Assembly: GCF_003991155.1 (NCBI RefSeq)
Contig: NZ_CP031293.1
Reading direction: 5' to 3' (one strand)
DNA length: 64,000 nt
Origin: Escherichia coli
GTDB lineage: Bacteria; Pseudomonadota; Gammaproteobacteria; Enterobacterales; Enterobacteriaceae
Shown: positions 1 through 2,679 of the stretch, one piece after another
How the letters are laid out: each line of letters opens with the position of its first letter
How positions within the stretch are numbered: position 1 is the first letter of the stretch
Made by a program: the position numbers and the translations under genes
The notes under the pieces: model-generated
The model's input: the letters and a program-made list of their open reading frames with translations, nothing else
Databases searched by the model: none
What the model was told of the DNA's origin: nothing

Positions 1-69
1 TAGTATAAAAACGGGACTCATCAGTGACTTCGTGCAATCCAACGAACTCTGGACGAAAAAATTACGCAT

Positions 70-282
70 ATGCTTAAGGAAATTGACGTGTGGTCACATT
101 CGGCTTTGAGAAAAAACGGTATCGAGAATTATTCTGTGGTGAGGATCGCAAACAAATTAAAATCAGAAAGAACAGCAGCCAATTATTCAGATGATGTCCG
201 GAAGCTTTTTATATTGCACGAGCGCGTTTGCCCAAAGCAGGTTGTTAAAAGGTGGGGATATAGAAATGGACCCGGCGACTGA
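70..282 (+). CDS. hypothetical small ORF (70 aa); coding status uncertain
   Basis: ATG-initiated ORF whose stop codon lies inside a plus-strand terminator hairpin; no recognisable motif; I do not recall an annotated gene here. Confidence 0.2.
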   Translation: MLKEIDVWSHSALRKNGIENYSVVRIANKLKSERTAANYSDDVRKLFILHERVCPKQVVKRWGYRNGPGD

Positions 283-299
283 ACGCCGCCGGGTTTTTA
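271..299 (+). terminator. rho-independent terminator-like hairpin with T-run
   Basis: cccggcg...cgccggg stem followed by ttttt on the plus strand, just before the convergent ppsA stop. Confidence 0.5.
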
Positions 300-300
300 T

Positions 301-2679
301 TTACTTGTTAAGTTCAGCCAGGCTTAACCAGGTTTGCACCACGGTGTCCGGGTTCAGAGACAGGCTATCGATCCCTTCTTCCATCAACCATGCGGCAAAG
401 TCTTCGTGGTCGGACGGGCCCTGACCGCAAATCCCGACATATTTGCCCTGTTTCTTCGCGGCACGAATCGCCATCGACAGCAGTGCTTTCACCGCATCGT
501 TGCGCTCATCGAACAGTTCAGATACCACGCCGGAGTCACGATCCAGACCGAGCGCCAGCTGCGTCATGTCGTTTGAGCCAATTGAGAAGCCGTCGAAATA
601 TTCGAGGAACTGCTCGGCCAGCAAGGCGTTGGACGGAATTTCACACATCATGATGATTTTCAGCCCGTTCTCACCACGTTTCAGCCCCTGACGCGCCAGT
701 TCGTCAACCACCGCTTTCGCCTGATCTACGGTACGCACGAACGGGATCATGATCTCAACGTTGGTCAGCCCCATGTCGTTGCGCACACGTTTCACTGCTT
801 CACACTCCAGCGCGAAGCAGTCGCGGAAGCTGTCGGAAACATAGCGGCCCGCGCCACGGAAGCCGAGCATCGGGTTCTCTTCATCTGGCTCGTAACGCTC
901 ACCACCGACCAGGTTGGCATATTCGTTCGATTTAAAATCAGAGAGACGGACAATGACGCGCTTCGGATAAAACGCGGCACCCAGCGTCGCGATCCCTTCA
1001 GTCAGACGACCAACGTAAAATTCACGCGGAGAATCAAAACCTTTCATCATCTCGCGGATTTCGTTTTGCAACTGCGGTTCTTGATCGTCAAACTCAAGCA
1101 GTGCGCGTGGGTGGACGCCAATCATACGGTTGATGATAAATTCCAGACGCGCAAGTCCCACGCCTTCGTTCGGCAGACAGGCGAAGTCGAAAGCTCGGTC
1201 CGGGTTACCGACGTTCATCATCACCTTCAACGGCAGGTCCGGCATCGTTTCTACGCTGGAGCTTTTCACGCTAAATTCCAGCAACTCCGCATAGACGTAA
1301 CCGGTATCACCTTCGGCACAAGAAACAGTGACGTTCTCACCGTCTTTCATCCGTTCTGTTGCATCTCCACAGCCCACTACCGCCGGAATACCCAGTTCAC
1401 GAGCGATGATCGCCGCGTGACAGGTACGACCGCCACGGTTGGTGACGATGGCAGATGCTTTCTTCATGATCGGTTCCCAGTCCGGGTCGGTCATGTCAGT
1501 AACCAGCACGTCGCCAGGTTCGATGCGGTTCATTTCGCTGATGTCATGGATGACTTTCACCGGACCCGCGCCGATGCGATGACCGATAGCACGGCCTTCG
1601 GCGATAATCTTACCCTGTGAATGCAGCGTATAACGCTCCATGACCTGACCGCGTGAGCGCACGGTTTCCGGACGCGCCTGCACAATGAACAGTTTGCCGG
1701 TGTGGCCATCTTTCGCCCACTCAATATCCATCGGGCGACCGTAGTGTTTCTCAATTTGTACGGCCTGTTTTGCCAGTTCCTGCACTTCTTCGTTGGTCAG
1801 CGAGAAGATGTCACGCTGTTCCTGCGGTACGTCTTCGATTTTAACCTGCTTGCCGTGCTCCTGGGTCGGCGCGTAAACCATGCGGATTTTTTTCGACCCC
1901 ATGGTGCGGCGCACGATAGCCGGGCGATTCGCCGCCAGTGTCGGTTTGTGCACGTAAAACTCATCCGGGTTAACCGCACCCTGCACGACCATTTCACCAA
2001 GGCCCCATGCGGAAGTGATAAACACCACCTGGTCAAAGCCGGATTCGGTATCAATGGAGAACATCACGCCAGAAGATGCGAGGTCGGAGCGCACCATCCG
2101 CTGAACACCGGCGGAGAGCGCCACGCCACGGTGATCGTAACCCTGGTGCACACGATAAGAGATGGCGCGATCGTTAAACAGAGAAGCAAATACATGTTTC
2201 ACTGCCACGAGAACGGCGTCAAAACCCTGAACGTTGAGGAAAGTTTCCTGCTGACCGGCAAAAGAAGCGTCCGGCATATCTTCTGCAGTAGCGGAGGAAC
2301 GCACCGCAAACGAAGCGTTTTCGTCATCGGCGGAAAGCTGTGCATAGGCTTCGCGGATGGCGTTTTCCAGCTCAGGCTGGAAGGGAGTGTCGATAATCCA
2401 CTGGCGGATTTGCGCGCCCGCTTTCGCAAGCTGGGTAACATCGTCAATATCCGTTTTATCCAGCAGTTCATAAATGCGCTGGTTTACGCCGCTTTGGTCC
2501 AGAAACTGGTTAAACGCGTCGGCGGTTGTGGCGAAACCATTCGGAACGGAAACACCCATTCCGGAAAGGTTAGTAATCATTTCACCCAGGGAGGCATTTT
2601 TGCCCCCAACCCTGTCTACATCATTCATGCCGAGTTGGTTATACCAAAGCACCAGCGGTGACGAGCCATTGTTGGACAT
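301..2679 (-). CDS. ppsA: phosphoenolpyruvate synthase
   Basis: 792-aa ORF; translation recognisable as PEP-utilising enzyme ([21 protein letters not shown]); divergent from ppsR. Confidence 0.95.

Follow-up and report, generated by a model that had tools for sequence, protein, structure and literature searches.

In Escherichia coli K-12 the convergent genes fadK (plus strand) and ppsA (minus strand) are separated by 56 bp, and this spacer holds a GC-rich hairpin, CCCCGGCGactaaaCGCCGCCGGGG (MG1655 1784702-1784726; in outline CCC(C)GGCG-loop-CGCCGCCGGG(G)). The arrangement is the rule in the species: in 5304 of 5426 complete E. coli genomes, K-12 among them, the hairpin is the common terminator of these two convergent genes. 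On the plus strand fadK ends 24 nt before the hairpin, and the island-less strain STEC299 carries after the stem the same T-rich tail, TTTTTATTTA, as the window described below; for ppsA, on the minus strand, the stem-loop comes 6 nt beyond the stop codon and has the weaker of the two U-tracts. For K-12 under LB and glucose conditions, Adams et al. (PMC7815308) list by Term-seq neither a 3′ end at this hairpin (17846xx-17847xx) nor one assigned to ppsA, and Supplementary file 2 of the same work lists a bicyclomycin-sensitive Rho termination region at 1784357 on the minus strand, antisense to fadK and some 375 nt past the end of ppsA (score 6.7, p = 1.7e-10). These two results are consistent with some read-through on the minus strand in K-12 and suggest that the hairpin may be a leaky terminator for ppsA. 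We found nothing specific in the literature on a ppsA/fadK terminator, an sRNA or a small protein at this locus.

The window considered here is a stretch of 64,000 nucleotides from an E. coli genome (contig NZ_CP031293.1), and its first 300 positions hold the orthologue of this hairpin in altered surroundings. The gene for phosphoenolpyruvate synthase, ppsA, occupies 301-2679 on the minus strand, and 6 nt downstream of its stop codon (301-303) lies the stem-loop at 270-294, with the arms CCCGGCG (271-277) and CGCCGGG (287-293) followed on the plus strand by TTTTT (294-298). An earlier first-pass annotation of the window had described both the hairpin, which we place at 270/271-293/294, and the convergence of ppsA with the open reading frame (ORF) discussed below, and was right in both. 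The hairpin folds better than shuffled sequence, with -21.1 kcal/mol on the minus strand (z = -5.8; 0 of 200 shuffles as good) and -17.5 kcal/mol on the plus strand (z = -3.5), and a consensus scan finds it terminator-like on both strands. The minus-strand stem comprises 10 pairs, one of them a G.U that on the plus strand is an A.C mismatch, in the window as in K-12, which fits selection on the ppsA transcript. The T-rich tract TTTTTATTTA (294-303, plus strand) overlaps the ppsA stop and is the U-tract for fadK in strains of the K-12 type; the plus-strand U-tract, UUUUUAUUU, is strong because the hairpin is shared with convergent fadK in about 98% of E. coli. The minus-strand tail UCCAUUUCUAUAU (269 to 257) is weaker, and the minus-strand U-tract UCCAUUUCUAU, although weak to modest, passes the rule of the terminator scan (5 or more T in 8). 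Across the ten Escherichia sequences compared the stem does not vary, all differences falling in the loop and tail, and of 5426 complete E. coli genomes 5420 contain a match to the hairpin plus the adjoining end of ppsA. With its stable stem-loop, 3′ U-rich tract, position after a stop codon and conservation in orthologous loci, the hairpin is an ordinary ppsA terminator, known and universally conserved in E. coli, and termination would be expected to occur at it in this strain as well.

What distinguishes the locus from that of K-12 is an accessory island, an operon of sugar-acid type with four minus-strand genes, which separates fadK from the hairpin and lies to the left of window position 1 (L001 8171-11812, NZ_AP021933.1). 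The genes encode an anion permease (Na_sulph_symp/CitMHS), a 2-hydroxyacid dehydrogenase, a YhcH/YjgK/YiaL (DUF386) protein and an SDR oxidoreductase. Positions 1-330 of the window are matched in just 115 of the 5426 complete genomes; of six island-bearing RefSeq genomes that we opened, five show the full four-gene cluster, and the sequence taken from CE10 covers the permease end of it. The permease start codon lies 189 nt to the left of window position 1, and positions 1-300 are the right-hand part of a 488-bp spacer that extends from this start codon to the ppsA stop. In the island-bearing strains fadK is shifted about 4.1 kb away and has a different C-terminus: its last 13-16 codons or so end in KDILQRLEQTCVEA and a stop, as against KDIMRRLTQDVCEEIE and a stop in island-less strains (L001 8040-8170 and L002 2600-2680, respectively), and one island breakpoint therefore lies inside the 3′ end of fadK. 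Beyond this altered end fadK has a hairpin of its own, AAAGCACCTTACACGCAAGGTGCTTTATT, common to it and the convergent SDR gene.

These changes alter the meaning of the ppsA hairpin on both strands. Unlike in K-12, its plus-strand side follows no annotated gene. Likewise, transcripts that read through it on the minus strand pass into the upstream region of the island and not into antisense fadK; the K-12 Rho region has no counterpart in the window, and by analogy with K-12, read-through in the window strain would enter the upstream region and then the operon of the island, both of which are co-directional with ppsA. The proposal that a plus-strand transcript ends at the hairpin holds for island-less E. 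coli, where fadK ends just upstream; in this strain the hairpin has one clear client, ppsA on the minus strand.

The ORF itself begins with an ATG at position 70 and ends after 70 codons with a TGA at 280-282, inside the hairpin loop, as the first-pass annotation had described it and as the sequence and the list of ORFs confirm. Some of the accompanying statements have to be revised. It was thought to be the only plus-strand ORF to reach the hairpin, but a second one, of 77 codons (191-424), passes right through. It was described as perhaps an unannotated small protein, yet it is not strictly unannotated: a few GenBank submissions, for example those of E. coli MS 21-1 and 908525, contain the exact 70-aa sequence as a "hypothetical protein". 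These calls are best read as overprediction; in the 25 of 114 RefSeq records listed, nothing is annotated under positions 75-268. A second frame, open from the window edge and ending in GHIRL, was suspected to be the tail of an upstream gene. Its stop does lie at 107-109, but when upstream sequence is added from genomes that are 100% identical over 1-330 it turns out to be merely an ORF of 39 codons, with a GTG start 11 nt to the left of the window edge. The same extension shows that the nearest annotated gene is the anion permease, on the opposite strand.

Little about the 70-codon frame exceeds what chance would provide. When the 488-nt spacer is shuffled 5000 times with its dinucleotides preserved, the mean length of the longest ORF is 64 codons, and one of at least 70 codons arises with P = 0.33 when all six frames are counted and P = 0.08 when only ATG starts on the plus strand are; given the former value, the length is therefore expected by chance. 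Judged by eye, the upstream AACTCTGGACGAAAAAATTACGCAT contains no suitably spaced GGAG-like element that could act as a Shine-Dalgarno sequence, and GC3 is 0.44 in the ORF as compared with 0.62 in the neighbouring genes. A Pfam scan of the 70-aa and 77-aa products found no family. In distant-mode BLAST against E. coli genomes, positions 75-268 are single-copy and chromosomal only, with no paralogous or repeat-family copies. In these respects the ORF resembles the spurious short "hypothetical protein" frames of AT-rich intergenic DNA, which lack homologues and a ribosome-binding site, change at a neutral rate, have variable ends and chance-expected lengths, and are called by some annotation pipelines and not by PGAP. 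It differs from them in one feature, namely that its 5′ end overlaps a truly conserved stretch, and this conservation is at the level of DNA motifs and not of codons.

Nine genomes were aligned over the spacer: five E. coli island haplotypes (the WP2/window type, CE10, ECCNB12-2, Res13 and PS10-3), the E. coli contig end CYAV, Escherichia sp. E4385, E. whittamii and Escherichia sp. MOD1-EC7003 (MOD1); E2586 was compared separately, making ten sequences in all. Codon 57 (238-240) is CAG in the window type, CE10, ECCNB12-2 and E. whittamii and the stop codon TAG in the other six (Res13, PS10-3, E4385, E2586, MOD1 and CYAV), in which the ORF has 56 codons and stops short of the hairpin; the TGA within the hairpin loop is a lineage-specific ending. 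The upstream boundary varies too. A run of six A's at 56-61 has seven in the cryptic-clade strains E4385 and E2586, where the 39-codon frame is joined to the ORF to give 83 codons. In E. whittamii a TAT to TAA change stops the frame at codon 21, and MOD1 has stops at codons 8 and 21 as well as a 14-nt insertion. In CYAV an insertion at window position 84 or thereabouts takes away the start; its end resembles a terminal inverted repeat of the IS903 family, and it is presumably IS903-like. At this contig end (CYAV01000034.1; L004 1-97), a different sequence ending in TTATTTATTCAACAAAGCC meets the window sequence, and the junction yields a chimeric 84-aa "partial hypothetical protein" (P0003).

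The substitutions tell the same story. Over codons 1-56 there are 33 variable sites, distributed 10:11:12 over the three codon positions, and NG86 dN/dS in the ORF frame is 0.44-0.78, with 0.32-1.29 in two out-of-frame controls and about 0.02 in the neighbouring genes; dN is about 0.07 in the ORF and 0.0016 in ppsA. For the 83-codon form, E4385 and E2586 give a dN/dS of 1.0, whereas the same pair gives 0.027 in ppsA and a dN of 0 in the permease. Likewise, between WP2 and Res13 the divergence over window positions 96-240 is 0.083, as compared with a dS of 0.082 in ppsA and 0.094 in the permease, whereas the permease-proximal 147 nt of the spacer differ by just 0.020. The part at 156-250 is specific to Escherichia, has no similarity in other genera beyond about position 155 and drifts at an approximately neutral rate. 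A word-indexed search of 5.8 billion protein clusters found three matches to the ORF, all from Escherichia and of differing length, and an exhaustive phmmer search of 1.84 billion representatives with the 83-aa form returned Escherichia matches and two long repeat proteins; neither search found a homologue outside Escherichia. The two repeat proteins were dismissed as artefacts, their E-values being the sum of 6-7 weak repeat matches. The ORF at 70-282 is a chance, fast-decaying frame without protein-level selection. A small protein is spoken against by the flat distribution of variable sites, by dN/dS values equal to those of out-of-frame controls and by the stops in E. whittamii and MOD1, and the substitution pattern across strains is a non-coding one, the very outcome that the first-pass annotation had named as speaking against a protein.

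The conservation that does exist in the spacer lies upstream of the permease operon, in a block of about 180 bp from window position -25 or so to 155 (minus strand), the right-hand part of which fills positions 1-155. It is found in three genera (L001 11975-12155, L011 5690-5865 and L010 4790-4970) and moves with the operon through three different chromosomal contexts. Reading from the permease side, it contains a -10-like TATACT on the minus strand (7 to 2) within TTTTTATACT, which is invariant in Escherichia, Citrobacter youngae and the Enterobacteriaceae MAG UBA3516; an interrupted dyad at 27-48, ACTTCGT-N8-ACGAACT (also given as ACTTCGT-N8-ACGAAGT), with half-sites kept in the three genera, without compensatory changes and with its centre some 43 bp upstream of the presumed start of transcription; a perfect palindrome, GCATATGC (66-73), invariant across the three genera, within which the ATG of the ORF sits; and, in an invariant stretch at 92-99, the minus-strand motif ATGTGAYC (99 to 92). 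The flanks of GCATATGC remain palindromic through TA to CG changes on both sides (alignment columns 95/108 and 96/107). ATGTGAYC may resemble a CRP-type TGTGA half-site, which we offer as a lead only. In the first 25 codons of the ORF frame the cross-genus differences fall 9:8:7 on the three codon positions, as against 41:18:238 in the adjacent permease, in which about 51% of third positions are changed; the block is therefore conserved as DNA motifs and not as protein.

Position and conservation in three genera make it most likely that this block is the promoter and operator region of the permease operon, and its motifs are probably an operator array for a putative regulator encoded elsewhere. 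The candidate -35 element, AAGTCA, is poor (3 of 6), and a simple promoter scan passed over the TATACT site. The arrangement is like that of activator- or repressor-controlled sigma-70 catabolic promoters, with a -10-like TATACT, a weak -35, a dyad about 43 bp upstream and, farther upstream, additional palindromes and the TGTGA half-site, and it differs from these in that the island has no linked regulator gene. Two other readings of the block were rejected. A structured minus-strand leader or riboswitch has no covariation support in RNAalifold (-20 kcal/mol over 213 columns, with a covariation term of +0.62, from three independent lineages), and paired changes in the alignment of the block are confined to the flanks of GCATATGC, a single event. 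A pseudogene of a regulator is contradicted by conservation that is not codon-like and by the lack of a linked regulator in E. coli, C. youngae and UBA3516. Furthermore, the region upstream of a permease that is 77% identical, from a metagenome-assembled genome (L012), contains scattered look-alike motifs that are not collinear with those of the block, and we attribute them to chance. A mini-ORF of 10 codons, MKNYRTVIQT (L001 11936-11968, minus strand; window -65 to -33), preceded by AAGGGAT, falls between the -10-like element and the permease start codon, some 120 nt ahead of the latter, in what is presumed to be the leader. At the corresponding position in UBA3516 an extra 2-hydroxyacid dehydrogenase gene starts. 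The mini-ORF could be a remnant of such an extra gene, or it could encode a leader peptide.

It is informative to consider where else the operon occurs, as located by searching other genomes with the permease protein. E. whittamii and MOD1 have it at the same locus, and cryptic-clade Escherichia carry it too; in C. youngae it is at a different locus, adjoining a GNAT gene and a toxin-antitoxin pair, and in UBA3516 it takes a two-gene form flanked by malZ and proY. No linked regulator gene was found by the operon in E. coli, C. youngae, UBA3516, E. whittamii or MOD1. The genes of the island are not intact in every genome: the 2-hydroxyacid dehydrogenase of ECCNB12-2 is annotated as frameshifted (L018 3418-4376), the dehydrogenase is fragmented in the assemblies of E4385 and E2586, and the YhcH gene is split in E4385 (L003 4886-6386; L020 427-1387). 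In some lineages the island thus appears to be in decay, although decay and assembly error are both compatible with these observations. For E. coli paired with E4385 or E. whittamii, the dS of the permease and the divergence of the spacer are 0.08-0.19, well below the ppsA dS of 0.26-0.32, and this difference suggests that exchange of the island among Escherichia species postdates the divergence of the flanking core gene.

With the anatomy of the spacer, its pattern of conservation and the absence of coding constraint directly observed, we consider it probable (at roughly 0.87) that window positions 1-300 are non-coding, a spacer between the start of an accessory operon and the ppsA stop that contains a chance ORF and the ancestral ppsA terminator. 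The spacer has three parts: the block from about -25 to 155, which would hold the operon promoter and a regulator-binding region; some 100 bp of Escherichia-specific sequence at about 156-250, in neutral drift; and the hairpin at 270-294, the ancestral intrinsic terminator of ppsA. The 70-codon ORF is a frame that happens to be open across all three, and a CAG where others have TAG at 238-240 lets it run on to the TGA in the hairpin loop in this lineage. Neither the hairpin nor the ORF calls for a new gene, and both are ordinary.

Other explanations have to be weighed against this one, and those that give the region a coding past or present fare worst. If it were the 3′-UTR of a plus-strand gene further upstream, or what decay had left of the end of one, as the frame ending in GHIRL had suggested, one could point to the openness of that frame from the window edge to 109 and to its fusion with the 70-codon frame where seven A's are present; yet the frame remains at 39 codons when upstream sequence is added, and the fused 83-aa product lacks a homologue outside Escherichia. 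Moreover, there is no plus-strand gene upstream of the ORF for about 4 kb, the next four genes leftward are all on the minus strand, and fadK, some 4 kb off, has its own hairpin. The context in the six sampled genomes contradicts the idea, the suggestion that the region is simply a 3′-UTR falls with it, and we find it hardly credible. A real but young and lineage-restricted small protein, of 56, 70 or 83 aa according to lineage and translated from a plus-strand transcript that ends at the hairpin, has somewhat more to recommend it: E4385, E2586 and all five of the E. coli island haplotypes sampled in which the locus is uninterrupted keep the ATG-initiated frame intact, some pipelines annotate it, and a good plus-strand hairpin with a U-tract follows it. 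Against this stand a dN/dS near 1 that cannot be told from out-of-frame controls, the flat variable sites, the stops in E. whittamii and MOD1, a tolerated IS insertion, start and stop positions that both vary by lineage, the lack of a Shine-Dalgarno sequence, an atypical GC3, the want of a homologue beyond Escherichia, a length expected by chance and the absence of annotation in the 25 of 114 RefSeq records listed. Such a protein is in our estimation very unlikely, although the 56-83-aa forms of the ORF may be translated weakly or in particular lineages.

The same hairpin could also end a plus-strand RNA that is not coding, that is, an sRNA, or an RNA antisense to the upstream region of the operon, that starts within the spacer (for example at the promoter-like 106-135 or 186-215) and stops at the T-tract. 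There are two sigma-70-like matches on the plus strand, the hairpin is followed by UUUUUAUUU, and conservation within E. coli is good at positions 241-269, immediately ahead of the hairpin (none of the 29 differ between WP2 and Res13). However, the promoter-like matches reach scores of 9 of 12 and are no commoner than chance would make them (2, as against 0.9 +/- 1.1 in shuffles), the T-tract is accounted for by its ancestry as the fadK terminator, the body at 96-240 evolves at a neutral rate, and the conservation at 241-269 is not significant (about 2.3 differences would be expected) and lies in the zone of the minus-strand U-tract. In a search of Rfam 15 at a permissive E-value, no family reached even E = 0.1; the best match had E = 0.14, and all bit scores were far below the gathering thresholds. 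We regard such an RNA as quite unlikely. A more elaborate version, in which a divergent or antisense plus-strand RNA would run from near the conserved block to the T-tract, possibly encode in some lineages a very young, fast-evolving peptide of 56-83 aa and modulate the permease operon or the 3′ end of ppsA, is similarly unlikely. Taken together, a plus-strand sRNA or a very young peptide has a small chance of being present. If a plus-strand transcript of this sort were real, the regulator-less island would carry an RNA-based control element of its own.

The preferred reading, a non-coding spacer with a chance frame and an inherited terminator, removes a false small-protein candidate from this locus. 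It also gives what looked like a plus-strand terminator a simpler identity, that of the ordinary convergent fadK/ppsA terminator, robbed of its plus-strand partner by an accessory island. Finally, the motif footprint of about 180 bp that accompanies a regulator-less permease/dehydrogenase operon in three genera provides a starting point for studies of how this island is controlled.
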